Shown: positions 41,827-59,818 of the stretch, in pieces
How the letters are laid out: each line of letters starts with the position of its first letter
Position numbering within the stretch: the stretch's first letter is position 1
From: Geminicoccaceae bacterium
GTDB lineage: Bacteria > Pseudomonadota > Alphaproteobacteria > Geminicoccales > Geminicoccaceae
Length of the DNA stretch: 64,000 bases
Assembly: GCA_028279345.1 (NCBI GenBank)
Contig: JANQNY010000045.1
Location: 3,569-67,568, forward strand
Reading direction: 5' to 3'
Notes under the pieces: model-generated
Seen by the model: the letters and a program-made list of their open reading frames with translations, nothing else
Told to the model about the DNA's origin: nothing
The model's database searches: none
Program-made: the position numbers and the translations under genes

Positions 41827-41873
41827 CCTGTCCTTCCCGCTCTTTGGGCCCGCCCGCGGCTGCCCCGTTTGGC

Positions 41874-42278
41874 CTACTCGGCCGCCGGCTGCGGCGCCGC
41901 TGTGGCCTTGGGCGCGCGCTGCTCGACGCGTTCGGCGATGCGCGCCGACTTGCCGCGGCGGCCGCGCAGATAATAAAGCTTTGCCCGCCGCACCCGGCCG
42001 CGACGCACCACCTGAATGGAATCGATGCGTGGGCTGTACAGCGGGAAGACGCGTTCGACGCCCTCGCCATAGCTGATCTTGCGGACGGTAAAGGCCGAGT
42101 TGATGCCGCGATTGCGCCGCGCGATGCACACGCCCTCGAAGGCCTGCACGCGCTCGCGCGTGCCTTCGATGACCTTCACATTGACCCGCAGGGTGTCCCC
42201 GGGCGCGAAGGTCGGAACCGCGCGCTCGGCGGCGAGCCGGTCGATCTGCTCGCGCTCGAGCTGCTCAATAACATTCAT
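41874..42278 (-). CDS. rplS: 50S ribosomal protein L19
   Basis: [37 protein letters not shown]... Confidence 0.96.
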
Positions 42279-42333
42279 CGTACCGCATCCTTCCGCCGGG
42301 GCGCATCGCTGTTGCGCGCCGATGATCCAAAGC

Positions 42334-43035
42334 TCACTGCGCCTCGCTCGACGCCTCGAGCTTGGCCCAGAGGTCCGGGCGTCGCTCGCGGGTCAACCGC
42401 TGCGCTTCCGCCAGCCGCCACGCGCGAATGCGTTCGTGGTGGCCGGACAACAACACGTCGGGAACCGTCAGACCCTCGAACACCCGCGGTCGTGTGTAGT
42501 GCGGATATTCGAGCAGCCCCGCCGCAAAGCTCTCCTCGGCGAGACTAGCCTCCGATCCGACGACACCGGGCAACAGGCGAACGCACGCGTCCAGGAGGCA
42601 AAACACCGCGGGCTCGCCGCCTGAGAGGACGAAATCACCGATGCTCACCTCCTCGAGGTCTCGAGCGTCGATGAGCCGCTGATCGATGCCCTCGAAGCGG
42701 CCGCACACCATAACGATTCCGGACCCCGCGGCAAGCGCCTGCACGCGCCTCTGATCGAGCGGCCGACCGCGTGGGCTCAAGACGATTCGCGGCCGATCGT
42801 CGGGCGCCACGGCATCGAGTGCAGCGGCCAGCACATCGGCGCGCATCACCATGCCGGCACCGCCGCCGAACGGCGTATCGTCGACGCTTTCGTGCCGATC
42901 CGAGGTGAAGCGGCGCAGGCCCAAGGTCTCGAGGGACCATACGCCCGTTTCGCGCCCGCGGCCGACGAGCGAGTGGCCGAGCGGGCCCGGAAACATCTCG
43001 GGAAACAGGGTCAGCACGGAGGCTCGCCACGTCAT
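42334..43035 (-). CDS. trmD: tRNA (guanine37-N1)-methyltransferase
   Basis: [37 protein letters not shown] and EYPHYTRP motifs. Confidence 0.95.
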
Positions 43036-43556
43036 GCCGGCGTGCCCCCTTCGAGAAAGGCCGGTTCCGCCATCACCAGGTGCCCCGCGCGGGGATCGAC
43101 CTCGGGGAACTGGTCGCGGGAGAAGGGTAGGACGAGATCCTTGCCGTCCTCGGTGATGATCTCGACGACGTCGCCGGCGCCATGGTCGGTCACGGCGCGC
43201 ACCTGGCCCACGACATTGCCGGCCTGATCGACGACGGCGAGCCCCTTCAGATCCTCGACATACCACTCGTCGTCGTCGGGATCGGGCAGTCGGTCGCGGT
43301 CGACCCAGAGCTCGGTCCCGCGGAGCGCTTCGGCCTGGGTGCGATCGTCGACACCCTTGATGCGCGCCACCGAGCTGCCGCGCGCCGAACGCACGCGAAC
43401 GATCTCGAAGCGGCGGTCGCCGCGCGCGTTCTCGAGCGGACCGTAGGCTGCAATCGCTTCGGGGTCGGTCGTGAAGGTGCGCAGGCGAACCTCACCGCCC
43501 ACGCCGTGGGCAGCGGTCACCACGCCGAGACAGACCCGACGGACCCGCTTCATCAC
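43032..43556 (-). CDS. rimM: 16S rRNA processing protein RimM
   Basis: GVGGEVRL..., PRC-barrel C-terminus, and its position between rpsP and trmD. Confidence 0.9.
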
Positions 43557-43562
43557 ATCAGG

Positions 43563-44204
43563 TCAGGCCGACTTCTCGGCCTTGTCGTCCGCTGGCGCAT
43601 CCGCAGACGCCTTCTCCTCTGCCGGAGCGTCCTCGGCTGGAGCCTCGTCCGCTGCGGTCTCGTCGGCAGGCGTCTCTGCCGCAGGTGTCTCTGCGGCAGA
43701 CGGCTCCTCGGCGGGCGCTTCTGCGGCGGCGTCCTCGGCAGGGGCCTCTGAAGCCGCCTCCTCAACGGGCGCCTCCGGCGCATCGGCGGTGGCGGGCGGG
43801 GCTTCCGCGGGTGCTTCGGCAGGCGTTGCCGCCGCTTCGGCCGCCGCCGGCGTTGCCGCAGCCGCCGCCTCGGCCTTCTTCACCGCCTGCTCTTCGGCGC
43901 GCTTGCCGGTGCCGCGATGATAGGTCGGCACGCCCTTGGCGTTCTTGGGCGCGTTCTTGAGCCCCTTCGCGTCGAGGAAGCGCGCCACGCGATCGGAGCA
44001 CTGCGCGCCGTGGGAGAGCCAGTGCTGCACGCGCGCCTCGTCGAGCACTAGGCGCTCGTCGTTGTCCTTGGCGAGCAGCGGGTTGTAGGTGCCGATCTTC
44101 TCGATGAACCGTCCGTCACGGCGGGCCCGGCTGTCGGCGACGACGACCCGGTAGAACGGGCGCTTCTTGGTTCCGCCGCGAGCGAGGCGGATGGTCACGG
44201 CCAT
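43563..44204 (-). CDS. rpsP: 30S ribosomal protein S16 with a ~100-aa Ala/Glu/Pro-rich acidic C-terminal extension
   Basis: [42 protein letters not shown] core, followed by a low-complexity AEAPAE-type tail. Confidence 0.93.
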
Positions 44205-44232
44205 GGGCTTGGCTTTCTATGGGTAGGTTGGG

Positions 44233-45603
44233 TCAACGGTGGGGTGGCAAGAGGCCAGGCGGCAACTGGCCACCCGGCAGGGCCGGCATGGCGCCGCGTC
44301 GGCCCATCTTCTTCATGCGCTTCATCATCGTCTGCATCTCCTGATACTGTTTCAGGAGCCGGTTCACGTCCTGGACGCTGGTGCCGGAGCCGGTGGCGAT
44401 GCGTCGCTTGCGCGAGGCGCCGAGCAGGCGCGTGTCGCGGCGCTCGGCCGGGGTCATGGAATCGATAATGGCGGTCTGGCGAACGAGGATGCGCTCATCG
44501 ACATTGGCCTCGGCGAGCTGCTTCTTCACCTTCCCCACGCCGGGCAGCATCCCCATCAGGCCGCCCATGCCGCCCATCTTCTTGATCTGCAGGATCTGCT
44601 TTCGATAGTCGTCGAGGGTGAACACCCCCTTCTGCATGCGTCGGGCGAGCTTCTCGGCCTCCGCCTCGTCGACCTCCTCCCGCGCCTTCTCGACCAGCGA
44701 GACGATGTCGCCCATGCCGAGGATGCGCGAAGCGACGCGTTCCGGATGAAAAGGCTCGAGCGCGTCGAGCTTCTCGCCCTGGCCCACCAGCTTGATCGGC
44801 TTGCCCGTGACATGGCGCATCGAGAGGGCGGCGCCACCTCGCGCATCGCCGTCCATGCGCGTCAGCACGATGCCGGTGATGTCGAGGCGCTCGTCGAATG
44901 CGTGCGCCGTCTTGACCGCATCCTGACCGGTCATAGCGTCCGCGACGAGCAGGGTCTCCTGCGGGGCAGCGGCCGCTTTCACCGCCGCCACCTCGGCCAT
45001 CAGCTCTTCGTCGATTGCGACCCGGCCGGCAGTATCCAGGATGACGACATCATAGCCCTCGTTGCGGGCGGCCTGGAGCGCGCGCTCGGTGATCGCCAGC
45101 GGTGCCTGGCCCGGGACGATCGGCAGGCCATCCGCGCCCACCTGACCGGCGAGCACGGCGAGCTGCTCCTGTGCCGCCGGGCGACGCGTGTCCAACGACG
45201 TAAGGAGGACGCGGCGGCGGTCCTGCTTGACGAAGCGCCGCGCCAACTTGCCGGCGGTGGTGGTCTTGCCCGAGCCCTGCAGGCCCGCGAGTAGCACCAC
45301 CAGTGGTGGGTTCGTCGGCTTGACGAGCTCGACGCCCTCACCACCGAGCAGCTCGACTAGGCCGTCATGGACGATCTTGACCACCATCTGGCCTGGCGTG
45401 ACCGACTTGATCACCTCCTGGCCGACGGCGCGTTCCTTCACCGACGCGACGAACTCCTTCACTACCGGCAGCGCGACGTCGGCTTCCAGCAACGCGATGC
45501 GCACGTCGCGCATGGCGGCCTCGACGTCGGCCTCCGCGAGCGCACCGCGTCGCTTCAGGCGGTCGAAGACATCGGCGAGCCGGTTCGAGAGGTTGTCGAA
45601 CAT
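44233..45603 (-). CDS. ffh: signal recognition particle protein Ffh
   Basis: N and G domains (GLQGSGKTTT, DTAGR) and a Met-rich M domain (KKMGGMGGLMGMLPG). Confidence 0.97.
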   Translation of the reverse strand: MFDNLSNRLADVFDRLKRRGALAEADVEAAMRDVRIALLEADVALPVVKEFVASVKERAVGQEVIKSVTPGQMVVKIVHDGLVELLGGEGVELVKPTNPPLVVLLAGLQGSGKTTTAGKLARRFVKQDRRRVLLTSLDTRRPAAQEQLAVLAGQVGADGLPIVPGQAPLAITERALQAARNEGYDVVILDTAGRVAIDEELMAEVAAVKAAAAPQETLLVADAMTGQDAVKTAHAFDERLDITGIVLTRMDGDARGGAALSMRHVTGKPIKLVGQGEKLDALEPFHPERVASRILGMGDIVSLVEKAREEVDEAEAEKLARRMQKGVFTLDDYRKQILQIKKMGGMGGLMGMLPGVGKVKKQLAEANVDERILVRQTAIIDSMTPAERRDTRLLGASRKRRIATGSGTSVQDVNRLLKQYQEMQTMMKRMKKMGRRGAMPALPGGQLPPGLLPPHR

Positions 45604-45734
45604 GGTACGTGGCCCCGGCGGGACCCATCGCTCCGGAAGACATGGTTGTCGGCAGAAAAACGGACGCGTTTTCTAGGCGCGGGCGGTCCTTTGCGTCAAG
45701 CGCGCGTGGCCCCATGTAACGGTGCGGAGAGCAG

Positions 45735-47198
45735 GTGAGCGCGATGACCTTCGCCTTCGACAATACCTATGCCCGGCTGCCCGAGCGCTTCTTCGCGCGG
45801 TTGCCGCCAACGCCGGTGGCCCAGCCGGCGCTCGTCAAGCTGAACGAGCCGCTGGCCCGAGCGCTCGGGCTCGACCCGGCACTTCTGGCGTCCCCCGATG
45901 GCGTCGGCATGCTCGCCGGCAACGCGGTGCCGGACGGTGCCGAGCCGATCGCCATGGCCTATGCCGGCCACCAGTTCGGCTCGTTCGTGCCGCAGCTCGG
46001 CGACGGCCGGGCGCTCCTCCTGGGCGAGATCGTCGGTGTCGACGGCGAGCGTTTCGATTTGCAGCTGAAGGGCTCGGGCCGGACGCCTTTCTCGCGCATG
46101 GGCGACGGCCGGGCTTGGCTGGGCCCGGTGCTGCGCGAGTATCTTATCAGCGAGGCGATGCACGCGCTGGGCGTTCCGACGACCCGAGCGCTGGCCGCCG
46201 TCACGACGGGCGAGCCGGTTCATCGCGAGATCGTCCTGCCCGGCGCGGTTCTCACACGCGTTGCCCGTAGCCATGTGCGTGTCGGCACGTTCCAGTACTT
46301 CGCCGTCCGCGAGGATGTCGACGCGCTCCGCCGGCTGGCGGACTACGTCATCGCCCGATCCTACCCGGAGGTGGCCGAAGCCGACCGGCCGTACCGAGCG
46401 CTGCTCGACGAGGTGATCGCCCGGCAGGCGGCGCTCGTGGCGCAGTGGCTCTGCGTGGGCTTCATCCACGGCGTCATGAACACCGACAACACCTCGGTGG
46501 TCGGCGAGACCATCGACTACGGCCCCTGTGCCTTCATGGACGCCTATGATCCTTCCACCGTCTTCAGCTCCATCGACCAGACCGGCCGCTATGCGTACGC
46601 GAACCAGCCGCGGATCGCGCAGTGGAACCTCGCGCGCCTCGCACAGGCGCTGTTGCCGTTGTTGGACGAGGACGAGACCCGCGCTGTCGAGCAGGGGCAG
46701 GCGGCGATCGACGCCTTTCCGGCACTGTTCGACCGCGCCTATCTCGACGGGTTGCGCAAGAAGCTGGGCCTCCTCGAGCCGCAGGACGACGATGCCGAGT
46801 GCCTTACCGAACTCCTCAAATCGATGGCCGAGGCTGAAGCCGACTTCACCAACACCTTCCGCGCCCTCGTCGCCGTCGCCGAGGGAGACGAGGGGCCCGC
46901 GCAAGCGGCGTTCGCGGGTTTCGACGCGTGGGCACCCCGATGGCGTGAACGGATGGCGCGGGAACCGGCTGCTCGAGACGCGCGGCTCCGCGCGATGCGC
47001 GCCGCGAATCCCGTGATCATCCCGCGCAACCATCAGGTGGAAGCCGCATTGACCGCTGCGGTGGCAGGCGATCTGGGGCCGTTCGAGCGGTTGCTTGCCG
47101 TGTTGGCGCGACCCTACGACGACGATCCCGCCAACACTGCCTACCGGCGGCCCCCAGCCGCACATGAGGAGGTGCGCCACACCTTCTGCGGCACGTGA
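45735..47198 (+). CDS. selO: protein adenylyltransferase SelO (YdiU/UPF0061)
   Basis: [28 protein letters not shown] and HGVMNTDN motifs. Confidence 0.92.
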
Positions 47199-47368
47199 GG
47201 CTTTGGTTGCGTTGTTGCGCCGCAGCCTTTTGTAGGTGATAACACCCGCGTCAGTCTCGCTCCGATCCGTTTCCGTCCGTCTGCCAAGACCTCGGGGGCA
47301 CGCGACGAGGGTTGGCGCGGCCGCGCGGCAGAAGGGCCGCCGGCGACGGTTAAGAAAGGACGACGGTC

Positions 47369-47578
47369 ATGCCGACCGGGACGGTAAAGTGGTTCAACGC
47401 CACGAAGGGTTATGGGTTTATTCAGCCCGACGAGGGTGGCAACGACGTGTTCGTGCACATCTCGGCGGTGGAGCGCGCCGGCCTTGGGACGCTCCGCGAC
47501 GGCCAGAAGGTCGAGTTCGAGGTGCGCCGCGATCCGAAGCGCGGCAAGTCTTCGGCGGAAGAACTCAAGGCGGTCTGA
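47369..47578 (+). CDS. cspA: cold-shock protein (CspA family)
   Basis: [30 protein letters not shown] with RNP1/RNP2 motifs. A long 5' UTR-like gap lies upstream. Confidence 0.96.
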
Positions 47579-47670
47579 TCGGCGCGAGCGCCGGCCAGCC
47601 TTTTCCCAAGTATTCGGTCGGTTGCCGGCGGTTGCCGGCCGGATACGCTGTCGAAGCTGGCAGCTAGCTG

Positions 47671-48102
47671 CTAGGCAGCCTCGGCTCGCTCGCTTTCCTC
47701 AACCAGGCGACTGCCATGGGCAGCGGCGATGGCATCGGCGATCGCCGCGCGCCCGTGCGGGGTAAACCAGCCCCGCCGCTTGAAGACATCCGCCACGCGA
47801 TCGACGAGCGTTTCTGCGCAGAGCGCTTCGCCCATGGCGAGCACTGCGCCGCTCGTCTCGTCGGTGACCTGCCAAGGGCCGAGCCCAGCCGGAGGCGTTT
47901 CGAGTGCCACGCTGAGATAGGGGCAGGCGAAGCGTAAGGCCAAGCCGCCGTGCTCGCGTTCGGCCGCGCGCCAGTTGTCACGCAAGCAGATGCCGGCATC
48001 GTAGGGACATCGCCCACAAACGCGCGCGGGTGCGGTGGCCTGTTGCATCATGCAAGACGTCTCCGGGACGAACGACATGGATTCTGCGGCAGAATGTCGC
48101 AC
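47671..48102 (-). CDS. Cys-rich hypothetical protein, paralog B
   Basis: It shares C-x-RCP-[FY]-D-x3-C-x2-DNWR ... F-x-CP ... AGLGPW-x-[IV]-TD ... RRG-[YW]-F with the neighbour at 48161-48568. The start is uncertain (Met codons 1, 9 and 18). Confidence 0.6.
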   Translation of the reverse strand: MRHSAAESMSFVPETSCMMQQATAPARVCGRCPYDAGICLRDNWRAAEREHGGLALRFACPYLSVALETPPAGLGPWQVTDETSGAVLAMGEALCAETLVDRVADVFKRRGWFTPHGRAAIADAIAAAHGSRLVEESERAEAA

Positions 48103-48160
48103 ATCATAACGGCGCGTCGATGCGGACCAAGGTCGGACCTCCGATCCACATCTGGGTCGT

Positions 48161-48568
48161 TCACGCGTTGGCTAGCGCGCGGCGAACGCGCGGCAAGACC
48201 GGGTCCACCGGGACGCCGGAACGGTAGGCCGCCGCCATGGCGTCGACGATCTCGGCTTCACGCACGCCATGGAAGTAGCCGCGCCGCCGGAAGGTCTCGG
48301 CGGCGCTCCGGAAGGCGTCCAGCGGCGGGGCCAGATGCCCGTCGGCGATCGCCACGTTGCCGCGCCCCGCGCCGAGGTCGGTGATCGTCCAGGGTCCCAG
48401 GCCGGCATAGGTCGCCTCGAAGCGCAGCTCGATGAGCGGGCAGCGGAAGTTGAGCTCCACGCGGCCGCTTCCGGCCGGCGTACCCCGCCAGTTGTCGGCG
48501 ACACACAAACGCAGGTCGAAGGGGCAGCGCTCGCAGATGGAACAGGACGACCGGCTGCGGTCGGCCAT
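48161..48568 (-). CDS. Cys-rich hypothetical protein, paralog A
   Basis: See paralog B. SSCSICERCPFDLRLCVADNWRG..., with GAGG about 9 nt upstream of the ATG. Confidence 0.65.
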   Translation of the reverse strand: MADRSRSSCSICERCPFDLRLCVADNWRGTPAGSGRVELNFRCPLIELRFEATYAGLGPWTITDLGAGRGNVAIADGHLAPPLDAFRSAAETFRRRGYFHGVREAEIVDAMAAAYRSGVPVDPVLPRVRRALANA

Positions 48569-49162
48569 GGCAAAGCCTCAGGCTTGCCGCACGGCGCACG
48601 GCTTCATGCTGCGGCACCCTGTCGCATTTGAGCTATTCCGTCGAGAGCCACCAAGGAACTACACGAAAGGTGTTGTCGGTGTATTCAGGGTAGCGCGTCG
48701 GCCGACGGAGGACTGCGGCACGGCACGCTTTCTGCCGATCGCGATGTGGACTCGATCGGTGCTGTCTTCACCGACGCCGACGAGGCAAGCAAGCACGACC
48801 ACCAGGGAAGGGTTGCGCCGCGCCGGAAGGAAAGATCAGCCTGGAGTTCATCGCCGCGGAACTCGACCGCATCATGGGCAAGCAAGGGGCTTCGCTGAAC
48901 GACGTGGCGGTGTTGTTGGCGATGACGGAGCCGCTGGAAGGGACCGTGCAGGGCATAGTCGACAAGGTTTGCGCCAGAGAGAAGGGCCGCGCTTGTTGGA
49001 TAAGTCTTGAAGAATATTCAGTATTAATTGATTTCTCCTGAAAATTTTTTGAATAATGCAACATTAAAATTAAACAAAATGTCTACCTATCTGTTTGAGA
49101 ATGGGCAAAATACCTTTTATTATGTTTTGCGAAGCTGCATTTATCTTGAATGCTTATCCTTC

Positions 49163-49855
49163 TTAATCAAATATTTCATCCATTATTTCGAACATGTCAA
49201 GCTGGTCAGCATCTTCATCCTCACGCTTTAACCAGCGAAGGACGTCAAAAGCCCGTGTTTTATCAGAAGAGGGGTGAAATTTCATTGCTTTCATTTTCAT
49301 GTCCTTCATATGAATCATTTCATGCAGTATAAAGAAGTTTCGGGAAAAAAGCTTTGCTTCGTCAGGATCTTTTATCCTGCTGGTAATTGCTTCTCGCTCA
49401 CGCATTCGTAGAAAAAAGAGAAATGCAGGCTCAATGATAAATAACTCGTTCTTTTGCGGCAGCCATTCAAGTATTTGAATTTTTCGCCTCTTTTGAAAGT
49501 CTTTCAGCGCACCAAGCATAGCATTAATGGAAGGCTTGGGAGGAACGCGCGCGGGATGAAGGTTCAGCTTCTCAATTCGTGCATCTATTTCAGCGCGGCT
49601 TAGAGAGAATTTTAGAGGATCAACTTGAAAGCATGATAAGACAACATCATACGTGGGATATCTGCGAGCCGTTTTTCGCGCGCCCTCGGTCAATATTTGA
49701 TGAATGTCGCGCATCTGCGAGTAATGCGCAGATGCCACATTGAAAAGTGCATTTATGCAATCATCCCGACCAAACGTAATGTTTTTCTGCTTAGCCTGTC
49801 GTATCGTCAGCGAATTCTTGTCAATCAGGAGCTGCTGACCAAATTTGCTGCGCAA
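49163..49855 (-). CDS. hypothetical protein with a C-terminal HExxH motif; possibly the C-terminal half of a frameshifted ATPase gene
   Basis: It starts at a TTG preceded by an in-frame TAA. The helical middle is wHTH-like (PSINAMLGALKDFQKRRKIQILEWL). LHEMIH lies at 49310-49324 and the tail is acidic. Confidence 0.55.
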   Translation of the reverse strand: MRSKFGQQLLIDKNSLTIRQAKQKNITFGRDDCINALFNVASAHYSQMRDIHQILTEGARKTARRYPTYDVVLSCFQVDPLKFSLSRAEIDARIEKLNLHPARVPPKPSINAMLGALKDFQKRRKIQILEWLPQKNELFIIEPAFLFFLRMREREAITSRIKDPDEAKLFSRNFFILHEMIHMKDMKMKAMKFHPSSDKTRAFDVLRWLKREDEDADQLDMFEIMDEIFD

Positions 49856-50750
49856 TTATTGGCAAGCCTACGCACTCACGGGCTAGCGTTTGAATAAGCT
49901 CGGTGCTTAAATGGGCGTTTATGAATTGGAAACCTCGGAAAAAAATCTGCGAAACGTCTTCATTTGACCAGTTGCCAGCTTCAAGGTGAGTCGTGCGGCC
50001 AACGAGATCTTTATTTGAATTTGCGATGTCTATGATATGGTGGGTAGTACCGATCACAATGACAGAAATTCCCTCATCGCAGAAGATTTTCCACTGCTGA
50101 AATATGGTTTTTTGTGTTTCTTCATTTAGATAATGAAAATCCTCCAAAACGAGTATTCGCTGACTCTGCTTAAGCAGGGGCACCAAGTGTGATGGGGAAG
50201 GGTCGGCCAATACGGTTTCTCGTATCTGTGTCGCTGCATGTTGGAGGCCGCCTTCGAGTCGCCCCCGGCCCAAAACACGCGCTAAGAGGTTCCATCCAAT
50301 CTCGTACTCGCCCTCCACGGCCAAACGCGCGTCACTTGTGTCTGTACTGCTATCGTTCGTGATCCGCACGGCGCCAGCCTCTTCGAGGGCGCTGCGCCAA
50401 ATTGCATCAGACGATCTTGTATGATCTGAACGAACAATTATTGGTGCCAATTTGGCTTCGTTGAGAACGTTTCTAAAAAGAGAACTCTTTCCGGTCTTGG
50501 ATGGCCCAGTAATAAGAACAATTTGTCCTTTATTGTCTAAACTTGTGCGCAGTCGTTTTTCGAAAAGGCCATTGTTTCGTCGGACGTACGTGATAGTGGG
50601 GGTTCCGTTTGTTTTGAAGAGTTGCGTTATTTCTTTTGGTGCAATATTTTTCATAGATTGTATCCGATAGATCTTCTGCGTGAAGGAATGGAAGCAAGGC
50701 GCTTGAAACGGATCCGCGAGTTTTTGGCACCTTGCACGTAAGTTTGGCAT
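49821..50750 (-). CDS. P-loop AAA+/STAND-like ATPase (ORC/Cdc6- or Arch_ATPase-like)
   Basis: Walker A GPSKTGKS (50484-50507), Walker B ILVLEDFH, and VIVIGTTHH sensor-like and GLPIIAQQ lid-like segments. An alternative start is the ATG at 50654 (MKNIAPKE...). Confidence 0.7.
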   Translation of the reverse strand: MPNLRARCQKLADPFQAPCFHSFTQKIYRIQSMKNIAPKEITQLFKTNGTPTITYVRRNNGLFEKRLRTSLDNKGQIVLITGPSKTGKSSLFRNVLNEAKLAPIIVRSDHTRSSDAIWRSALEEAGAVRITNDSSTDTSDARLAVEGEYEIGWNLLARVLGRGRLEGGLQHAATQIRETVLADPSPSHLVPLLKQSQRILVLEDFHYLNEETQKTIFQQWKIFCDEGISVIVIGTTHHIIDIANSNKDLVGRTTHLEAGNWSNEDVSQIFFRGFQFINAHLSTELIQTLARECVGLPIIAQQIWSAAPD

Positions 50751-50755
50751 GCATG

Positions 50756-53700
50756 TTATCGGAAATTCCGCCCCTTGGGCATCGCTTCTTGGGCGCGCTG
50801 GGGTTTCTCGGCGAGGCGTCGGTCGCTGCGTGCGTCTGGCGAGGGCTTCTTGACGGCATCGGCCCGTGCTGCGGCTCGTTCGAAGGTGCGGACGAGCCGT
50901 GGATCGGCGGCGGTCTTGCCGCGGTGGCCCTTGCCCGCGCGCTGGTCGGTAGCGGGGCGTTTGACTTCATCCGATGGAGGTATCGCCTTGTCGACGGCCT
51001 CGTAGGCGGCGTCGGGGTCGTCCGTGAGGAGCGCGAGCTTGTCGGTGAGGTCGATGAGCCGGCGCGCGACCAGGTGGATGACCTGGCCCGTGCGCTGCAC
51101 CTGGCCCTCACAGGCGAGCAGGCGGGCGGCCATGACGATGGGGCGGTAGCGATCGAGGAGCTTGGGCCAGACGACGAGGTTCACGATCCCGGTCTCGTCC
51201 TCGAGGGTCGAGAAGACGACGCCCTTGGCAGAGCCCGGTCGCTGGCGGATGAGCACGAGCCCTGCCGTACGGAAAGGCGCGCAGTCTTCCGCCTCTTGGA
51301 TGGCGCCGCAGGTCCGCCAGCCCTCTTGGGCAAGGAGCGGGCGCAGCACCTCGCACGGGTGCGCCTTCAAGGAGAGCCTGAGCCAGGTGTAGTCCTCGAC
51401 CACCGCCTCGCCCAAGGGCATCGGCGGCAGCTCGACATGCGGCTCGGGGTGCAATGGCGGCCGATTGGAGCCTGCGGGTGCCGCGAGTTCCGCTTGGTCG
51501 AAGAGCGGCAGCGGCTGGTCCTTTAAAGCCCTAACCGCCCATAGAGCCTGCCTGCGGACGAGATTGAGCGAGCCCATGGCGTCGGCTTCGGCGAGGCGTT
51601 CGAGCGTCGCTAGATCGAGTGTCGCACGCCGCTGTAGATCCTGGACATCGGCGAAGTCGCCGGTCGTCTCGCGCGCCTTGATGAGGCGCTCAATGGCGTC
51701 CTGGCGCAGGCCCTTGACCTGACGAAAGCCCAAGCGGAGCGCGTGGCGAGGGCCGGCGACGTGCACCGGACGCGGCTCGAGGCTGTTGTCCCAGAAGGAC
51801 CAGTTGACGTCGACCGGGCGCACCTCGACGGCGTGGTTCCGGGCGTCCCTGACGATCTGCGCGGGGCCGTAGAAGCCCATCGGCTGGGCGTTCAGGAGCG
51901 CTGCCGCGAAGACGTCCGGGTGGTGGCATTTGAGCCAGGCCGACACGTAGACGAGGTGCGCGAAGCTCGCCGCGTGGCTCTCCGGGAAGCCGTAATAGCC
52001 GAAGCCTTTGATCTGCTGAAAGCAGCGCTCTGCGAAGGCGGCGTCGTAGCCGCGCTCGACCATGCCGTCGACGAGCTTCTTGTGAAACTGCTCGAGCTTG
52101 CCGTTCTTGCGGAAGGACGCCATCGAGCGGCGTAGCTCGTCGGCTTCGGCGGGTGTGAAACCGGCAGCGACAATGGCGATCTTCATCGCCTGTTCTTGGA
52201 AGATCGGCACGCCCATGGTCTTGCCGAGCACCTGCTTCAGCGCGTCCGAGGGAAAGGTGACGGGCTCCTCGCCGTTGCGACGCCGGAGATAGGGGTGGAC
52301 CATGTCGCCCTGGATCGGGCCGGGCCGGACGATCGCTACCTCGATGACGAGGTCATAGAAGGTTTGTGGCCGGAGCCGCGGCAGCATCTGCATCTGCGCC
52401 CGGCTCTCGATCTGAAAGACGCCGATGGTGTCGGCATTGGAGATCATCGCATAGGTAAGCGGGTCGTCATCTGGAATCCAAAAAAGTGAAGGTGTTATAC
52501 GCTTATGCTCATGTAAAAGATCAAATGCGCGACGGATGCAGGTGAGCATGCCGAGCGCCAGCACGTCGATCTTGAGCATCTTGAGCGCGTCGAGGTCGTC
52601 CTTGTCCCATTCGACGACGGTGCGCTTGTCCATCGCCGCGTTCTCGATTGGCACCAGCTCGTCGAGGCGCGACTTGGCGATGACGAAACCGCCGACATGC
52701 TGCGAGAGGTGGCGCGGAAAGCCGATGAGCTGCTTGGCGAGCTCGATCGCCATGCGGATCGTCTCGTCCTGCATGTCGAGACCCGAGTCCCTCAGCTTCG
52801 CGGGATCGAGGCCTTCGGTGGACCAGCCCCAGACGGTCCGGGCGAGCGCGTCGACGGCATCGAGCGACAGCCCCAGCGTCTTACCTACCTCGCGGATCGC
52901 CGAGCGCGCGCGATAGCGGATGACGGTGGCGGCGAGCCCCGCATGCTCGCGGCCATAGGTCTCGTAGATGTGCTGGATCACCTCCTCGCGACGCTCGTGC
53001 TCGAAGTCGACGTCGATGTCGGGCGGCTCGTTCCTGGCGGTTGAGACGAAGCGCTCGAACAGAAGATCGAGGTGCGCCGGGTCGACGGCGGTGACGCCGA
53101 GGCAGTAGCAGACCGCCGAGTTCGCGGCTGAGCCGCGGCCCTGACAGAGGATCTCCTCGGAGCGGGCGAAGCGGACGACATCGTCGACGGTGAGGAAATA
53201 GGGTGCGTAGTCGAGCGAGCCGATGAGCTCGAGCTCGTGGCGAAGCTGTGCCTCGACCTGCTCGGAGAGCCCCTCGGGATAGCGCTCCGCAGCGCCCGCC
53301 CAGGTGCGGCGCTCGAGCTCCTGTTGCGGCGTCAGGCCGGCGTAACTCTCAGGCACCGGATAGTCGTAGGCGAGCTCGTCGAGGGAGAAGGTGCAGCGGG
53401 CAACGATATCGAGGCCGGCCTGGAGCGCGTCGGGATGGTCCTGGAACAGCCGAGCCATGTCCAAGGCACTCTTGAGATGGCGTTCGGCGTTGGGTTGGAG
53501 CCGGGAGCCGGCCTGATCGAGGGTGACGTGCTCGCGGATACAGGTGAGCACGTCCTGCAGCGGCCGGCGAAGGGCTGTGTGATAGAGAACGTCGCCCGTC
53601 GCCAGGAGCCGGCACTCGGTCTTGTTGGCGAGATCCTGGAGCCTCGCGAAGCGCGCGCGATCGCGCCCGTCGAAGCGGGGCGAGGCGGCCACATGCGCGC

Positions 53701-54142
53701 GGTCGGAGAAGACGCAGCGGAGCTCGGTGAGCCAATCCTTGAAGGTGCCGTCGGGCAGCTTGGGGAGGAGGGCGGCGATGGCCAGACCGTCGGCAGCGTC
53801 GGCATAGAGATCGTCGACGCCGAGCTGGCACTGGCCCTTGGGGGCGCGGCGGCGACCCTTGGAGATGAGCTTGGCGAGGCGGGCATAGGCCGGGCGGTCG
53901 ATCGGCCAGGCGAGCAGCGAGCGGCCGCAGGTGAAGTCGAGCCGCACGCCGGGAAGAAAGCGCAAGCCCGTATCCTTGGCGGTGACGTGCGCACGGACGA
54001 GGCCGGCAAAGCTGTTCCGGTCGGTGACGGCGAGCGCTTCGAGGCCCAGCTCGGCCGCGCGCAGCACCAGCTCCTCAGGGTGCGACCCGCCCTCGAGGAA
54101 GGTGAAGTTGGTGGTGACCTGAAGCTCGGCGTAGGCGGACAT
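50756..54142 (-). CDS. dnaE2: error-prone DNA polymerase (DnaE2 / ImuC)
   Basis: PHP domain (YAELQVTTNFTFLEGGSHPEEL) and Pol III alpha core (GSAANSAVCYCLGVT, PDIDVDFEH, GVFQIESRAQM). It lies downstream of imuA-imuB. Confidence 0.95.
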   Translation of the reverse strand: MSAYAELQVTTNFTFLEGGSHPEELVLRAAELGLEALAVTDRNSFAGLVRAHVTAKDTGLRFLPGVRLDFTCGRSLLAWPIDRPAYARLAKLISKGRRRAPKGQCQLGVDDLYADAADGLAIAALLPKLPDGTFKDWLTELRCVFSDRAHVAASPRFDGRDRARFARLQDLANKTECRLLATGDVLYHTALRRPLQDVLTCIREHVTLDQAGSRLQPNAERHLKSALDMARLFQDHPDALQAGLDIVARCTFSLDELAYDYPVPESYAGLTPQQELERRTWAGAAERYPEGLSEQVEAQLRHELELIGSLDYAPYFLTVDDVVRFARSEEILCQGRGSAANSAVCYCLGVTAVDPAHLDLLFERFVSTARNEPPDIDVDFEHERREEVIQHIYETYGREHAGLAATVIRYRARSAIREVGKTLGLSLDAVDALARTVWGWSTEGLDPAKLRDSGLDMQDETIRMAIELAKQLIGFPRHLSQHVGGFVIAKSRLDELVPIENAAMDKRTVVEWDKDDLDALKMLKIDVLALGMLTCIRRAFDLLHEHKRITPSLFWIPDDDPLTYAMISNADTIGVFQIESRAQMQMLPRLRPQTFYDLVIEVAIVRPGPIQGDMVHPYLRRRNGEEPVTFPSDALKQVLGKTMGVPIFQEQAMKIAIVAAGFTPAEADELRRSMASFRKNGKLEQFHKKLVDGMVERGYDAAFAERCFQQIKGFGYYGFPESHAASFAHLVYVSAWLKCHHPDVFAAALLNAQPMGFYGPAQIVRDARNHAVEVRPVDVNWSFWDNSLEPRPVHVAGPRHALRLGFRQVKGLRQDAIERLIKARETTGDFADVQDLQRRATLDLATLERLAEADAMGSLNLVRRQALWAVRALKDQPLPLFDQAELAAPAGSNRPPLHPEPHVELPPMPLGEAVVEDYTWLRLSLKAHPCEVLRPLLAQEGWRTCGAIQEAEDCAPFRTAGLVLIRQRPGSAKGVVFSTLEDETGIVNLVVWPKLLDRYRPIVMAARLLACEGQVQRTGQVIHLVARRLIDLTDKLALLTDDPDAAYEAVDKAIPPSDEVKRPATDQRAGKGHRGKTAADPRLVRTFERAAARADAVKKPSPDARSDRRLAEKPQRAQEAMPKGRNFR

Positions 54143-54154
54143 GGGAGCGGACGA

Positions 54155-54568
54155 TCAACCGCCGAGCGAGACGACGCGGGCGTCGAAGCGCGTACCTGCG
54201 ACGGACGCCCGCAAGCGCCTGTCGTCGGTGACGAGCGAGGCATCGGCTGCCTCGGCAAGCGCCAGATAAACGCAGTCGTAAATCGGATGATCGAGCTCAA
54301 GCATGATGGGCACGGCCTCGTCGATGAGGTCGTGCGTCCGCACGAGTACCGGCACGCCATGTTTGAGACAACGCATCGTGTCGTCGAGATCGATCCGGTC
54401 GATCTCGCCGCGACGCAGCTTCTTCCAGAGCGCGTTCGTGACTTCGAGGATGAGGAGATCAGGCGCCAGCAAGTCGGAAGCATGATCGATGAGCCATAAC
54501 GCATCGTCCGTCCGCTCCTCTTGAACGAACCACTTCAAGACGACGCTTGCGTCGAGAACGATGGTCAA
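54155..54568 (-). CDS. vapC: PIN-domain toxin (VapC family)
   Basis: IVLDASVVLKW (Asp), EVTNAL (Glu), IYDCVYLALAE and LVTDD acidic residues. The TTG start overlaps the vapB stop (TTGA). Confidence 0.85.
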   Translation of the reverse strand: MTIVLDASVVLKWFVQEERTDDALWLIDHASDLLAPDLLILEVTNALWKKLRRGEIDRIDLDDTMRCLKHGVPVLVRTHDLIDEAVPIMLELDHPIYDCVYLALAEAADASLVTDDRRLRASVAGTRFDARVVSLGG

Positions 54569-54798
54569 CGATCGCGATCCTCGCGGATCAAGAGTGTGCT
54601 GTTCGTCTGTGTACGGCGGGCAGTACGGGTACGGATATCGGCTGCTGCTGCTTTGAACGCCCCGATGTCCACGGGACGAACTGCGTTGGTCACAATGTCT
54701 CTCAGCTCCGCCTCGAGGGAACGATGATGGTGCCGTGCTCGGTTCCGAAGGCGCTCGATGACATCATCGTCGAGATTGCGGATGGTGACGTTACCCAT
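54565..54798 (-). CDS. vapB: antitoxin, FitA/Arc-like ribbon-helix-helix (VapB family)
   Basis: MGNVTIRNLDDDVIERLRNRARHHHRSLEAELRDIV is the classic plasmid-stability antitoxin N-terminus. GGAG lies upstream. An alternative start is at 54825. Confidence 0.8.
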   Translation of the reverse strand: MGNVTIRNLDDDVIERLRNRARHHHRSLEAELRDIVTNAVRPVDIGAFKAAAADIRTRTARRTQTNSTLLIREDRDR

Positions 54799-54848
54799 GG
54801 CCGAGGCTCCGAACGGAACAGTCATGATGATAGCATAATGCAAGCATG

Positions 54849-56369
54849 TCAGGCGAACAGACCGTCCAGGGTCCAGCGTGGCGGGGCGCCGGTGCCGAAG
54901 GCGCCTTCTCGGCGGACCCAGAGGCGGCGACCGTCTGCCAGGTCGAGGCGGTAGTAGTCGCGCGGCTGGCCTTCGGGGTCGCGCCACCATTCGGGCTCGA
55001 TCCGTTCGGGGCCTTCGGCAGCGACGACATCGGCGAGCCCGCCGCCGAAACGTAGCCGTCGCGGCGCGCCGTCGGGGACCGCGGCGACGACGCCGATCGG
55101 TCGTGGCTCTTCCAGGAGACGCAGCGGGCGTGGCCCCCGCGTCGGCCAGGGCGCCGGCGAGGGGGCGTCGAGCGCCGGGACGAGCCGAATGGTGCGCTCG
55201 GGCCAATGGCTGTCGTTGGCGCGCAAGCGGCGGACACGGTCGATGCCCAGCCGCTGGGTGAGGCGTTCGGTGAGCCGCGCCTCGGCTTCGCTTCTGGCTT
55301 CGCCACCGCTGCCACCATCGGAATGGAGCTGGCGGGCGCCGAGCTGCTCGGTTCGGGTCGCCGCGAGCCGCAAACATTCGATGCCGAAGCCGAGGTCGAG
55401 CCCGTCTAGATCGTCGCGAAAGAGGCGAAAGAGCGCCTTGGGTTCGCGGTTTGCACAGGCTGTTCGGACCTGAAGGCGATGCAGCGCGCCGTCGAGGCGT
55501 GCCAAGTCGAGCTGCAGCACACGGGCGCCGAGCTGGGCGTGCTCGAGCACGCGGCAGAGGCTTGCGAGTGCTTCGCCGAGTGCTGCTTCGATACCCTCGG
55601 TCGTACCCAGAGGCTCGGCCCAGGCAAGGCGCACGGCGTGGCACGAAGGTGCCGCGAGCGCGGTGAACGGCACCTCCATGCGACCCATGAGCTGATGTAG
55701 CCGTTGGACGGGAACGGCGCCGAACCGGGTCGTCAGGGTACTGTGCGGGACAGCTTCGAGATCGCGCACACGCTTGAAGCCCAGTCGCACGAGCCCTTGC
55801 GCGGTAGCGGGCTCGAGCCTCAGGGCGGTGATGGGCAGGTTCAGCATGGCGGTCTCGGTGCGCGTGCCGGCGAGCACGCCACCCGTACCGAAGCGTGCCC
55901 AGGCCCAGGCGGCGGCAGGATTGGCAGCGCTCGCCGCACGCATCGCGAAGCCCAAGGGCGCGAGGCGTGTTTCGAGATCGGCCATGAGATTCGCCTCGCC
56001 GCCCGCGAGATGTGCGCAGCCGGTGATATCGAGCAGCACGCCGTCGTCGCCGTCGGTGGCAGTCCAAGGGGTATAGCGACCGCACCAGAGTGCTAGTGCC
56101 TCGAGGGCTTGGGCATCACGCTTGGGATCGGCGTCGGCCACGGCGAGCCCGGGGCAGATGGCGCGGGCATCGGCGAGGCCCAGACCGCAGTGCAGCTTGG
56201 TCGCCGCGGCCTCTCGGGTGAGCGCGTAGAGCCGGGGGCCGCTCGCCTCCATACGCAGCAGCGCGAAGGGCTTTCCCGCGTGATCGGGTTCACCCGTGCG
56301 CCGCAGCTGCAGCCGAAAACGATCCGTGGGCCAGGTCGGCAACCAGATCGAAACGTAGCGTCGGCTCAT
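54849..56369 (-). CDS. imuB: Y-family polymerase-like protein ImuB
   Basis: MSRRYVSIWLPTWPTDRF N-terminus is typical of ImuB, and the gene lies between imuA and dnaE2. I used the ATG at 56369. Confidence 0.9.
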   Translation of the reverse strand: MSRRYVSIWLPTWPTDRFRLQLRRTGEPDHAGKPFALLRMEASGPRLYALTREAAATKLHCGLGLADARAICPGLAVADADPKRDAQALEALALWCGRYTPWTATDGDDGVLLDITGCAHLAGGEANLMADLETRLAPLGFAMRAASAANPAAAWAWARFGTGGVLAGTRTETAMLNLPITALRLEPATAQGLVRLGFKRVRDLEAVPHSTLTTRFGAVPVQRLHQLMGRMEVPFTALAAPSCHAVRLAWAEPLGTTEGIEAALGEALASLCRVLEHAQLGARVLQLDLARLDGALHRLQVRTACANREPKALFRLFRDDLDGLDLGFGIECLRLAATRTEQLGARQLHSDGGSGGEARSEAEARLTERLTQRLGIDRVRRLRANDSHWPERTIRLVPALDAPSPAPWPTRGPRPLRLLEEPRPIGVVAAVPDGAPRRLRFGGGLADVVAAEGPERIEPEWWRDPEGQPRDYYRLDLADGRRLWVRREGAFGTGAPPRWTLDGLFA

Positions 56370-57054
56370 CGAAGACCACCTCGAAACGGCGCGGAACAGC
56401 GCCCTTGGCGCGCCAGAGTTCGGCACTCCAGGTGAGCGGACCAAGCTCGCCGGGCCAGCGGGAGAGGGACGGTGCGGGTCGGACCCGCCAGCGGGTGACG
56501 GCAGCGCTGGGCTCGAGCAACGTGGCTGCCGGCCTGAGCAGCAGCCCGACGCCACCACCGGTTTCGGCGGCGAGGTGCAGCCGGCGGCTCCTGAAGAGGT
56601 CGAGCCGCTCCACCTCGCCGACGACGGCGGTGACCGCGGTCGAACGCAGCGCCTCTTCCATGGCCCAGAGGACCTGCGCGTCGTTCGCGCCGTCGACGAG
56701 GAGAATGCGGTCGGGATCGAGACCGAACGCCATGAGCCCCGGGCCGTGGAGCATGCCCTCGTCACGGCGCCGCCGGCGGTGCTGGCACCAGACAACGAGA
56801 CCAGGCCGGACCCGGGCAACGCGCCCGGCGAGTGCTGCCGTAAAGCCCGCAGCACCGCGCCCACCAACCTCGTGTATGGCTTGGAGCCGCAGACCGCCGC
56901 CGGGAAGTGCGCGATCGAGGGCCACGGCGCCCAGCTCTGCTACGGTGGCGCATGTTCTGCTGCAGCGTCCGCCAAGCCGGGCCATGGCGGCCCGCAAGGC
57001 CAGAAGATCGGCGGTAGGATCGGACGCAGCCGACAGCAGGCATACGTCGTTCAT
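56290..57054 (-). CDS. imuA: RecA/SulA-like SOS mutagenesis protein ImuA
   Basis: LPGGGLRLQAIHEV...VVWC...LHGPGLMAFGLDPDRILLV is typical of ImuA. It is the first gene after the LexA boxes. Its 3' end overlaps imuB by 80 nt. Confidence 0.85.
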   Translation of the reverse strand: MNDVCLLSAASDPTADLLALRAAMARLGGRCSRTCATVAELGAVALDRALPGGGLRLQAIHEVGGRGAAGFTAALAGRVARVRPGLVVWCQHRRRRRDEGMLHGPGLMAFGLDPDRILLVDGANDAQVLWAMEEALRSTAVTAVVGEVERLDLFRSRRLHLAAETGGGVGLLLRPAATLLEPSAAVTRWRVRPAPSLSRWPGELGPLTWSAELWRAKGAVPRRFEVVFDEPTLRFDLVADLAHGSFSAAAAAHG

Positions 57055-57096
57055 GGCACGCACCACCGCTCCTCAAGCTTGAGACGGATCATCTTT

Positions 57097-57111
57097 GTTC
57101 TTGAAATGTTC
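57097..57111. promoter_or_regulatory. alphaproteobacterial LexA (SOS) box GTTC-N7-GTTC
   Basis: Read directly as GTTCttgaaatGTTC, 43 nt upstream of the imuA ATG, within an AT-rich promoter-like stretch. Confidence 0.8.
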
Positions 57112-57142
57112 TATAACCGTTTTGATGTCTGTCAAGCAGATA

Positions 57143-57157
57143 GAACAAAAATAGAAC
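57143..57157. promoter_or_regulatory. second LexA (SOS) box, GAAC-N7-GAAC (opposite orientation)
   Basis: Read directly as GAACaaaaataGAAC, 89 nt upstream of the imuA ATG. Confidence 0.75.
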
Positions 57158-57468
57158 ATGCCCGGCAGCCAGGGGGCCACGCGCCCTGGCGCGGTGCGCA
57201 TACCAGGATGAGCGCTGGGCCTCGTAACGCTTGCAAATCCTATCAAAACCTTTGATTTAGAAACCCGCGGTATACGCCGTAAACGCAACTGCGTCCGACC
57301 CGTCGTTGGCCCACGGACTGTTCGCTCTCTCGGGAGCGCTGTCCATGTAGCGTCATCTCGGTGGACGCTCGATCAGGTTACCGATGGCCGTGTCGTCGCA
57401 CGTCGGCGGGCCGCAGTGACGCATGGTCGTTGATCGCAATCGCGCGGCTCTCGCGCCTGGCCTGGAGT

Positions 57469-58302
57469 GTGGCCTTGGAAAAGATCCAGCAAGCGATAGA
57501 GCGCGCACGCCAGCAGCGGGCGACTGTGATGGCCGGCCCCGGCCGCGCTGCCGCATCGACGATGAAGCCCAGCGCTCCCCCTGCCTCATTGGAGGCCGTA
57601 CGGCACCGTTTCCAGAGCGTGACGCTCGATCCGACGCATCTCCGCCAAACCCGCGTGGTCGCTGCCGATCTGGAGGACGCGCGGGCCGACATCTTCCGCA
57701 GCCTGCGCACGCAGATCGTTCTGCGACTGGAGACCCTCGGCGGCCGCAGCGTGGCGATCCTCAGTGCCCGTGACGGGGAAGGCAAGACCCTCGTCGCGAC
57801 CAATCTCGCCTTCAGCCTCGCTCGGCGGGCCGAAGGCCCAGTCTTCTTGGTCGACATGGATTTCCGGCGGCCATCCGTGTGCAAGACCCTCGGCATCGAG
57901 GCCGCCCATAGCGTGTCCGACTATGTGGAGGGAAGCGCCGACCTCGAGGAGGTCGTCGTCAACGTCGAGAACAGCAACTTGTATGTCCTTCCGCAGATGC
58001 GGCCGATGGTGCGCGCTTCGGAGCTCATCGCCTCCACGCGTGCCCGCGATCTCGTGCGCGAGCTCGTCGGCCAGACTACCGGCGGCTATGTCGTGGTCGA
58101 CTGTCCGCCCTTGCTGCTGACCGACGAGCCGCTCGCCGTCCAGACCTTTGTCGACAGCTGCATGCTGGTGGTGGAGCAGCGTCGCACCCGCCGCGAGGAC
58201 GTGCAGCGGGCGGCAGAGCTGCTCGATGAGACCAAGTACATTGGTTGTGTTATGAACCACGCCGACAGCGTTTCCGATTACATGACCTATGGCTATCGCT
58301 GA
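57469..58302 (+). CDS. MinD/ParA-type ATPase resembling exopolysaccharide/PEP-CTERM-locus tyrosine autokinase (CpsD/CapB-like, no Tyr-rich tail)
   Basis: Walker A ARDGEGKTLVATNLA, A' FLVDMDFRRP and Walker B VVVDCPPLL. The N-terminal LEKIQQAIERAR is like that family. The start is uncertain (GTG 57469 or TTG 57475). Confidence 0.7.
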   Translation: MALEKIQQAIERARQQRATVMAGPGRAAASTMKPSAPPASLEAVRHRFQSVTLDPTHLRQTRVVAADLEDARADIFRSLRTQIVLRLETLGGRSVAILSARDGEGKTLVATNLAFSLARRAEGPVFLVDMDFRRPSVCKTLGIEAAHSVSDYVEGSADLEEVVVNVENSNLYVLPQMRPMVRASELIASTRARDLVRELVGQTTGGYVVVDCPPLLLTDEPLAVQTFVDSCMLVVEQRRTRREDVQRAAELLDETKYIGCVMNHADSVSDYMTYGYR

Positions 58303-58332
58303 GCACAGGGTCGCCGAAGCGAGGTAACGAGC

Positions 58333-59817: not shown

Positions 59818-59818
59818 G

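Follow-up and report, generated by a model that had tools for sequence, protein, structure and literature searches.

The PDC-S59 model of PADLOC (PDLC05049) is one of 145 'phage defence candidates' (PDC) from a guilt-by-embedding screen, whose authors took the candidates from genes embedded within known defence systems and describe them as untested (bioRxiv 10.1101/2024.01.29.577857). Among AAA+ ATPases, the clade of the origin recognition complex (ORC) and Cdc6 is recognized by an insert after strand 2, an arginine at the base of strand 5, a helical bundle, and a domain of the winged helix-turn-helix (wHTH) type (PMC12839542). Within anti-invader systems, BrxC and BrxD of BREX and the DUF499 ATPases have been proposed to form an oligomeric DNA-associated scaffold and not to act as enzymes (PMC12839542). 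In this study, we analysed an islet of low G+C content (GC) in a 64,000-nt stretch of DNA from a Geminicoccaceae bacterium (GenBank assembly GCA_028279345.1, contig JANQNY010000045.1, positions 3,569 to 67,568; hereafter the window, whose own numbering is used throughout). The islet lies downstream of dnaE2, and an earlier reading made without database searches (the sequence-only reading) had seen in it a two-gene module of an NTPase and an effector, coupled to the SOS mutagenesis genes upstream. Our results correct this annotation: the apparent SOS-tied sensor/effector pair is a single broken copy of a family that had already been flagged, and the islet gene can be assigned with good confidence as a decayed member of this catalogued, uncharacterised candidate family, PDC-S59.

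The two reading frames and the extra G

The islet holds two overlapping minus-strand open reading frames (ORFs), ORF-A at 49821-50750 (309 aa) and ORF-B at 49163-49855 (230 aa). The sequence-only reading had placed them correctly and had taken them for two genes; the coordinates stand, and the separation does not. Removal of one G, at 49839 or 49840, yields a 496-aa ORF that runs from an ATG at 50654 to a stop at 49163. At this +1 insertion site (49839-49840, minus strand caa att tGG tca (gca gct)), deletion of either G restores the family consensus GLPIIxQQxC-xQLF(xDK), and the window then reads AQQICQQLLIDK / AQQICQQLLIDKN. Read as one gene (49163-50654, minus strand), the islet is predicted to encode a PDC-S59-like ATPase of the ORC/Cdc6 type with a C-terminal winged helix, frameshifted and probably a pseudogene. 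Its 5' part, ORF-A from the true start (49821-50654, minus strand, 277 aa), would comprise the N-terminal strand, the AAA+ core with its helical insert, and most of the lid, and it stops five codons past the frameshift. The 3' part, in the frame of ORF-B (49163-49855, minus strand), would comprise the rest of the helical region and the winged helix, followed by a lineage-specific tail modelled with low confidence.

The gene has its true start at M33 of ORF-A, an ATG at position 50654; every homolog begins there, as does the public annotation P0001 (277 aa, 100% identical). Because this ATG and not position 50750 is the start, the gene lies about 100 nt downstream of the dnaE2 stop, and the distance of 5 nt given by the sequence-only reading does not hold. 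The sole start option of ORF-B is a TTG that lacks a Shine-Dalgarno-like sequence, and no internal Met occurs before residue 48.

ORF-A matched PDLC05049 with an E-value of 5.6e-33 over model positions 18-257 of 428, and ORF-B alone had neither a PADLOC match nor a Pfam hit. With the repaired fusion, the match extended to positions 18-402 (E 1.9e-37, 127 bits), and intact relatives score 127-158 bits on the same model, like the repaired window protein. The fusion retrieved 238 homologs in a sequence search. Each of the 119 listed besides P0001 is a single chain, with a length of 433-488 aa and an identity of 40-48% over 83-91% of the fusion, and the family alignment passes without a break across the junction of ORF-A and ORF-B. 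On these alignments, it is very likely that the two ORFs are one gene of the PDC-S59 family split by a +1 G. The architecture, implied earlier to be uncatalogued, is thus already held by PADLOC, and the PADLOC scan that had been proposed as a check does return a match to this candidate.

A pair consisting of an NTPase sensor (ORF-A) and a metallopeptidase-like effector (ORF-B) could be suspected from two observations, namely that the ORFs overlap as translationally coupled genes might, and that an HExxH exists in ORF-B (LHEMIH, 49310-49324, minus strand). The homologs, which are single chains over both ORFs, and the TTG start speak against such a pair, as does the content of ORF-B, in which residues 1-155 make up the lid and wHTH half of the family itself. 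In a model built from the exact ORF-B sequence and the family alignment, these residues form helices and a winged helix with a predicted local distance difference test score (pLDDT) of 90-98, so that the wHTH-like middle noted in the sequence-only reading is recovered with confidence; the tail is a lone helix with a pLDDT of 64 falling to 39. Compared with the PDB by Foldseek, the ORF-B model had no match at E <= 1e-3, and no protease occurred even among the weak matches, which were MarR, RovA, the winged-helix domain of Cdc6/ORC, STIV F93, and forkhead domains. Family conservation ends at R416/W417, and the HEMIH (residues 444-448 of the repaired protein) lies beyond this point, inside a tail insertion specific to the window sequence. 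None of 120 homologs contains an HExxH, and seven chance occurrences are present in the six-frame translation of the window. A zincin-type metallopeptidase was therefore rejected, as no globular protease fold surrounds the motif and no Pfam hit was obtained. Judged by sequence and model, HEMIH is a chance motif in a non-conserved tail and no catalytic feature; the sequence-only reading was right about its presence and wrong in taking it for a feature of an effector or of the family. The NTPase-plus-effector module is accordingly given up, and a two-gene defence system at this locus is barely credible.

It is also quite unlikely that the gene is intact and the extra G an error of sequencing or assembly. 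Such an error would explain why a single-base change restores a full-length conserved ORF and why conserved residues are kept throughout both halves. However, the NCBI record and an independent Logan assembly of run SRR20820731 show no difference over 4,873 nt (100% identical, extra G included), the site is a GG and no long homopolymer, and about 12% of other family copies are interrupted as well. The reading frame is broken within the matched region in 6 of 49 metagenomic copies (L036, L055, L056, L057/L058, and L071), where assembly errors are possible, and stays in one frame over this region in the other 43. Pseudogenisation like that of the window thus seems to be frequent in the family.

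Alternatively, the locus may be functional because the frameshift is bypassed, by a programmed +1 shift or by transcriptional slippage, or because the halves act as a split protein. The short distance from the shift to the ORF-A stop would suit a bypass, and the halves correspond roughly to separable modules, the ATPase and the wHTH. On direct reading, however, att tgg tca is no known +1 slippery or stop-codon context; the metagenomic copies that keep one frame, and the aligned intact homologs, which are continuous here, argue in the same direction, as do the missing initiation signal of ORF-B and the position of the break inside the lid helix bundle, just after GLPII. We regard a bypass or a working split as most improbable. 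Since the insertion parts the ATPase half from the DNA-binding half and the latter has no credible start, the window copy is most likely inactive and decaying, and it can be called, with fair assurance, a non-functional probable pseudogene.

Predicted fold and its known counterparts

The closest intact homolog, P0006 (48% identical), was modelled with AlphaFold2 together with 119 family sequences, giving a pLDDT of 92.7 and a predicted TM-score of 0.90. The model begins with a short N-terminal strand and a helix, followed by strand 1 with Walker A (GPSKTGKT), strand 2, and a helical insert of ~90 residues (helices 81-162) that is much longer than the canonical one. Strand 3 carries Walker B (hhhhEDFHY), strand 4 has GTTHH, and an invariant arginine, R220 (DLVGR), immediately precedes strand 5; the five AAA+ strands lie at residues 44-48, 69-74, 165-170, 197-201, and 220-224. 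The lid consists of three helices (230-277) with an invariant GLPII, and the C-terminus consists of a helical linker and a wHTH (331-414) with a beta-hairpin wing, the winged helix holding a conserved basic patch, GPRKxARKYxTYE. In the window protein, Walker A (GPSKTGKS, 50484-50507, minus strand) goes with the family-invariant S52 K53 T54 G55 K56, Walker B (ILVLEDFH, 50133-50156, minus strand) goes with the family-invariant E171 D172 F173 H174 Y175, and the lid segment GLPIIAQQ occupies its conserved position, so all three motifs that had been picked out from the sequence are found where the family has them.

In Foldseek comparisons with the PDB, the best matches of the P0006 model were Pyrobaculum Cdc6 (1fnn, E 3.7e-10), PABY2304 of Pyrococcus abyssi (2qen, TM-scores 0.50/0.61), ORC1 in ORC-DNA complexes, RuvB, CED-4, and RFC. 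This agrees with the sequence-only reading, which had named ORC/Cdc6 or Arch_ATPase-type proteins as the likely relatives. The family profile had no significant match to PDB sequences (best E 0.036), and a library of viral structures gave only generic AAA+ and clamp-loader matches. Based on the model, we are confident that the protein is an ORC/Cdc6-like AAA+ ATPase with a helical lid and a winged helix and with no enzymatic domain. This predicted architecture, together with a strictly single-gene organization and essentially no fusions, is part of what the present analysis adds to the hidden Markov model (HMM) by which the family was known.

The likeness to PDC-S59 covers the full-length HMM match, the single-gene unit, the length class, and the architecture. 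The window copy differs in being frameshifted, with no intact ORF, and neither it nor most of its relatives lie in or beside a defence system. With archaeal Orc1/Cdc6 (1fnn, 2v1u, 2qby) and eukaryotic ORC1/Cdc6, the family shares the order of domains, namely an AAA+ base with an insert after strand 2, a lid, and a winged helix, and these proteins are the best fold matches of P0006 (E 3.7e-10 to 1e-7). However, identity is just 10-14%, whole-chain TM-scores are 0.37-0.47, no sequence match is significant, and the islet family has a far longer insert after strand 2. The islet family is furthermore bacterial, sporadic, and horizontally moving, and would be ill-suited to the role of an origin-binding initiator. 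The best structural superposition is that with PABY2304, an Arch_ATPase with a wHTH (PF01637), and PF01637 itself gives weak hits in the window protein and in some homologs; the Pfam score, 14 bits, is far under the cut-off of 33.

BrxC/BrxD of BREX and the DUF499 ATPases likewise combine an ORC/Cdc6-type AAA+ domain with a following wHTH in an anti-invader context. The islet protein is of ~440-500 aa as compared to ~1,200, its gene stands alone with no PglZ, PglX, or other BREX genes nearby, and the PADLOC models of BrxC and BrxD had no match at E <= 1. STAND proteins, such as CED-4 (2a5y) and the bacterial Avs proteins, share the core of P-loop, helical, and winged-helix domains, and CED-4 is among the fold matches, whereas the islet protein has neither a C-terminal repeat sensor nor an N-terminal effector and ends shortly after the wHTH. 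The nSTAND3 score of the window protein was only E 0.15, and no Avs model was among the PADLOC matches. Gabija, Septu, Lamassu, and PARIS are ABC-ATPase systems, whereas the islet fold is AAA+ and has no partner gene; GajA, PtuA, and AriA had no PADLOC match, and LmuB matched over a P-loop of 25 residues (E 1.8e-4). As this was the sole match to any of the named systems, the earlier statement that the islet fits none of Gabija, Septu, Lamassu, PARIS, and Avs is upheld.

At E <= 1e-30, a profile search of 1.84 billion cluster representatives returned 440 clusters, and at E <= 1e-10 it returned 1,416. The matches listed are for the most part full-length (~400-470 aa), and the remainder consists mainly of shorter fragments; only one or two exceed this length clearly, and extra domains are essentially absent among them. 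No recurrent partner emerged from an all-against-all comparison of 119 neighbouring ORFs from ~37 independent loci, in which only syntenic pairs from related genomes were found.

Acquisition, settings, and possible role

The islet (49015-50740) is the sole compositional outlier of the 64-kb window. Its GC is 43.6%, as compared to 67.3% in 1-kb windows elsewhere (standard deviation 2.8, minimum 58.4), and a scan in 300-nt windows shows GC values of 0.63-0.70 dropping to 0.36-0.47 across ~48950-50750 and then returning to 0.68-0.70. GC at the third codon position is 0.45 in the islet and 0.85 in dnaE2. The drop that the sequence-only reading had described between ~48995 and the dnaE2 stop is therefore real and is the only one of its kind in the window. 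The left edge is the GC step near 49015, and on the right homology to relatives stops ~12-15 nt past the dnaE2 stop. The sharply bounded contrast in GC and third-position GC, along with a like contrast in 43 of 44 family loci elsewhere (median difference 9.7 points below the flanks), supports the conclusion, also drawn earlier, that the islet was acquired horizontally, as a segment of ~1.7 kb carrying one gene.

The neighbouring ORFs that were scanned have neither an integrase nor a transposase domain. No tRNA was found in 40000-60000, no Rfam match in the islet, no second copy of its DNA elsewhere in the window, and no significant attC, hairpin, target site duplication, or terminal inverted repeat at its ends, and these scans agree with the sequence-only reading, which had noted the absence of integrase, transposase, tRNA, and att repeats. 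A flank-to-flank repeat test gave a best local alignment score of 22, which was reached by 3.4% of shuffles. The AT-rich 3' tail after the stop codon (49015-49162, minus strand) has at its bounds one imperfect inverted repeat, the only one found and not significant (48998-49013/49144-49159, 16 nt, 81%), and it folds no better than shuffled sequences (z = 0.5). An integron gene cassette was rejected, as there is no attC-like hairpin at the 3' end of the ORF; in most relatives there is no room for an attC, because GC is back to the host level right at the stop codon. An integrase-borne genomic island is likewise not indicated, in the absence of a tRNA, a flanking repeat, and an integrase domain within the ranges given above. 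On the plus strand at 48680-49041, a protein-like and apparently frameshifted frame runs convergently into the AT-rich tail of the islet; considered as a truncated target gene, it had no homolog except itself in a collection of 5.8 billion proteins.

Family members in seven genomes of different genera stand alone between housekeeping genes, with no integrase. The neighbours are uvrB/greA/carB in Breoghania, hemN/rdgB/rph in Nitrospirillum, rpsA/cmk/aroA in Ancylobacter, thyA in Pontibacter, a UvrD-like helicase gene with higBA nearby in Mesorhizobium, and ubiA/DUF6101 in Devosia, where the arrangement is identical in 23 contigs; in Marinobacter the gene comes after the urease operon, and a small HNH gene and a Y1 transposase lie close by. 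In six of the seven, the GC of the gene is 13-30 points under that of its flanks. At four alphaproteobacterial loci, GC of at least 0.65-0.70 is reached within the first 40 nt past the stop, and the AT-rich part upstream extends for just 100-200 nt. Such near-universal low GC, together with frequent pseudogenisation, is typical of accessory genes with fast turnover.

Pfam and PADLOC scans of the neighbours likewise gave mostly housekeeping families. A minority matched an AbiU2 HEPN protein (twice), a Pycsar-type TIR protein, a type III methyltransferase, a zeta toxin, and an IS3 transposase, as well as PDC-S35, PDC-S60, PDC-S31, and mad3, so that defence, toxin-antitoxin, or mobile neighbours occur in roughly a quarter of the loci. 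At one of these loci (L030), an AbiU2 HEPN gene (2792-3445) lies 44 nt upstream and an ORF with an integrase-like-looking N-terminus (5969-7126) lies downstream; at another (L025), a gene for a CAP12/Pycsar-type TIR effector (2-445) lies upstream of the family gene. Searches of plasmid and phage collections gave only relatives of 22-25% identity, located on plasmids except for a single phage-borne one, and thus no evidence that the close family rides known plasmids or phages.

Whether the family has an anti-phage or anti-mobile-element role is, in our estimate, an even bet. Intact members may work as ATP-gated switches that bind DNA by means of their winged helix and of the helical insert that follows strand 2, as inferred from AAA+ proteins of the ORC/Cdc6 clade. 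As in these proteins, oligomerisation would involve the conserved arginine before strand 5, which would complete the active site of the neighbouring subunit. Since no nuclease, protease, NADase, or other effector occurs in any family member, action would be on DNA or via host machinery: without an enzymatic effector, the protein might occupy, remodel, or mark invading or replicating DNA, or recruit host factors. This specific DNA-occupancy mechanism, drawn by analogy, is tentative, and we would sooner doubt it than assume it. If it is true that an intact member protects against phage, the family would provide an ORC-like immune protein that lacks an effector, a case of mechanistic interest.

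Several points weigh against reading the islet gene as a horizontally acquired, decayed member of a defence family. Most contexts are plain housekeeping surroundings and not defence islands. A literature search found no mention or test of PDC-S59, which is not among the PDC types tested elsewhere, and a search for ORC-like single-gene defence gave no direct match. By its scores on the PADLOC model, the clade of the window protein, albeit full-length, is a sister group of the seed set and not close to it. As to decay, the Logan and NCBI assemblies probably go back to the same reads, which leaves a sequencing error conceivable, and the split halves could conceivably work together. As to insertion, the nearest DnaE2 proteins in GTDB representatives are 73-74% identical and come from Geminicoccaceae-like metagenome-assembled genomes (MAGs). 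The comparison of the dnaE2 flank proposed in the sequence-only reading shows the same dnaE2 end in these relatives with other genes following, at 62-70% GC and without conserved synteny. The loss of homology just past dnaE2 fits an insertion, but relatives of this identity are too far removed for a clean empty site to be seen.

The family might instead be non-immune, that is, cargo or an accessory of a minimal mobile cassette, for example a TniB/TnsC/IstB-like AAA+ regulator or a DNA-binding maintenance factor that is mobilised in trans, and its associations with defence islands would then reflect shared integration hotspots. We consider this unlikely, albeit less so than an error in the sequence. 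Weak similarities to TniB and TnsC, genes that are lone, tightly bounded, and low in GC, the predominance of housekeeping neighbours, and direct repeats of 52-53 nt at two loci point towards it. On the other hand, no transposase or integrase is consistently linked, just 3 of 36 loci have repeats, the family entered PADLOC through its embedding inside known defence systems, and the close family was not found in the plasmid and phage collections.

The repeats come from a sensitive flank-versus-flank search, which was positive for L003 (Nitrospirillum; 9763-9815/11333-11385, 53 nt, 52/53 identical, 98%), L025 (456-507/2025-2076, 52 nt, 94%), and L036 (2993-3013/4740-4760, 21 nt); the local alignment scores of the first two are 111 and 93, as compared to 22 for the window. 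In L003, the downstream copy coincides with the genuine 3' end of the convergent hemN and includes its stop codon, and the upstream copy is an orphaned pseudo-3' end, with weaker similarity for ~15 nt further. L025 has the same geometry at the 3' end of a convergent gene, stop included, which is ybeD-like by sequence (YRALSAHPDVKMVL vs RALNTHPDVKMVL). The two repeat sequences are unrelated and hence come from the targets. At both loci, 1,517 nt separate the copies; the two proteins are 47% identical, the non-coding parts do not align, and the equal length is possibly coincidental. These repeats are reminiscent of att sites in elements directed at the 3' ends of genes, whereas here the unit has one gene and no integrase, and no recombinase lies near either cassette.

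PDC-S59-like genes could accordingly be imagined as the sole cargo of an undescribed mobile cassette of ~1.5 kb that inserts at the 3' ends of convergent housekeeping genes, which we regard as a long shot. Such a cassette would duplicate ~50 nt of the target 3' end and, having no recombinase of its own, would be mobilised in trans or would use the ORC-like AAA+/wHTH protein for its own integration; the window islet would then be an old copy, now decayed and without its former repeats. The tight cassette edges at other loci, the low GC of the genes, and the lack of a linked integrase or transposase are open to this interpretation. Whatever their origin, the repeat-bracketed cassettes at gene 3' ends offer a concrete handle on the movement of lone accessory genes.

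The SOS genes and other neighbours

The islet gene is preceded, in the same orientation, by dnaE2, imuB, and imuA, and its neighbours are dnaE2, small ORFs, and cspA. The gene dnaE2 (50756-54142, minus strand) encodes the domains of a Pol III alpha subunit and ends in ...AMPKGRNFR*, the same C-terminus as in relatives; ImuB has the IMS fold; imuA, with no Pfam hit, is syntenic with and 62% identical to a gene in a related MAG. Between imuB and dnaE2, at 54155-54800 (minus strand), lies a vapBC-type pair of a FitA-like ribbon-helix-helix antitoxin and a PIN toxin, an arrangement that also occurs in two related MAG loci, L008 (VapB 64% identical) and L011, and not in a third, L007. The sequence-only reading was thus right in placing the islet downstream of the SOS genes and in the same orientation, and the operon that it had named is itself interrupted by the vapBC pair. 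The alphaproteobacterial LexA-box consensus is GTTC-N7-GTTC. Its only two matches in the window, 57097-57111 and 57143-57157, lie just upstream of imuA, and no LexA-type box was found at or near the islet.

DNA-damage-coupled expression of the islet gene had been suggested from this position. Read-through from dnaE2 is possible, because the genes are co-directional, lie ~100 nt apart, and have no detected terminator-like site between them; it would express a broken gene. A sigma-70-like promoter match, TTCACG-16-TACAAT (50657-50684, minus strand), lies directly upstream of the ATG and is a match to consensus only. A specific SOS link is not borne out, given the lack of a LexA-type box and the fact that homologs adjoin unrelated genes in every genome examined. 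DNA-metabolism genes (dnaE2, uvrB, a UvrD-like helicase gene, thyA, nrdJ, and nrdB) are immediate neighbours at ~6 of 37 independent loci, and rmuC is one gene away at one locus. Their orientation is mixed, being convergent for uvrB and the UvrD-like helicase gene. Adjacency to SOS or DNA-repair genes was rejected as a family trait, as the frequency is about that of chance by a rough estimate, the category was defined after the fact, and the orientations are mixed.

Directly downstream of dnaE2 in L008, where the window has the islet, there is an AbrB/VapB-like antitoxin frame (4090-4286, VKLFRNGRNQAVRIPREFELPGE), and L007 has a more degenerate-looking AbrB/VapB-like frame downstream of dnaE2 (~11270-11350). 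In this lineage, the 3' flank of dnaE2 may act as a hotspot where accessory genes collect.

The proteins of the window form singleton clusters (exact-sequence clusters). On the far side of the islet, there is a tandem pair of small, Cys-rich, paralogous ORFs (47671-48102 and 48161-48568, minus strand; 143 and 135 aa, 36% identical) with host-like GC and no Pfam match, of which the 135-aa one is alone in its sequence cluster. Within dnaE2, GC dips mildly to 0.56-0.58 at 52250-52700. A ParA/AAA_31-type P-loop protein is encoded on the plus strand (57361-58302), followed by an ExeA-like AAA_22 ATPase (58333-59241); the lid motif of the latter, GLPRLINSLC, resembles GLPIIAQQIC of the islet protein, yet both genes have a GC like that of the host and no relation to the islet.

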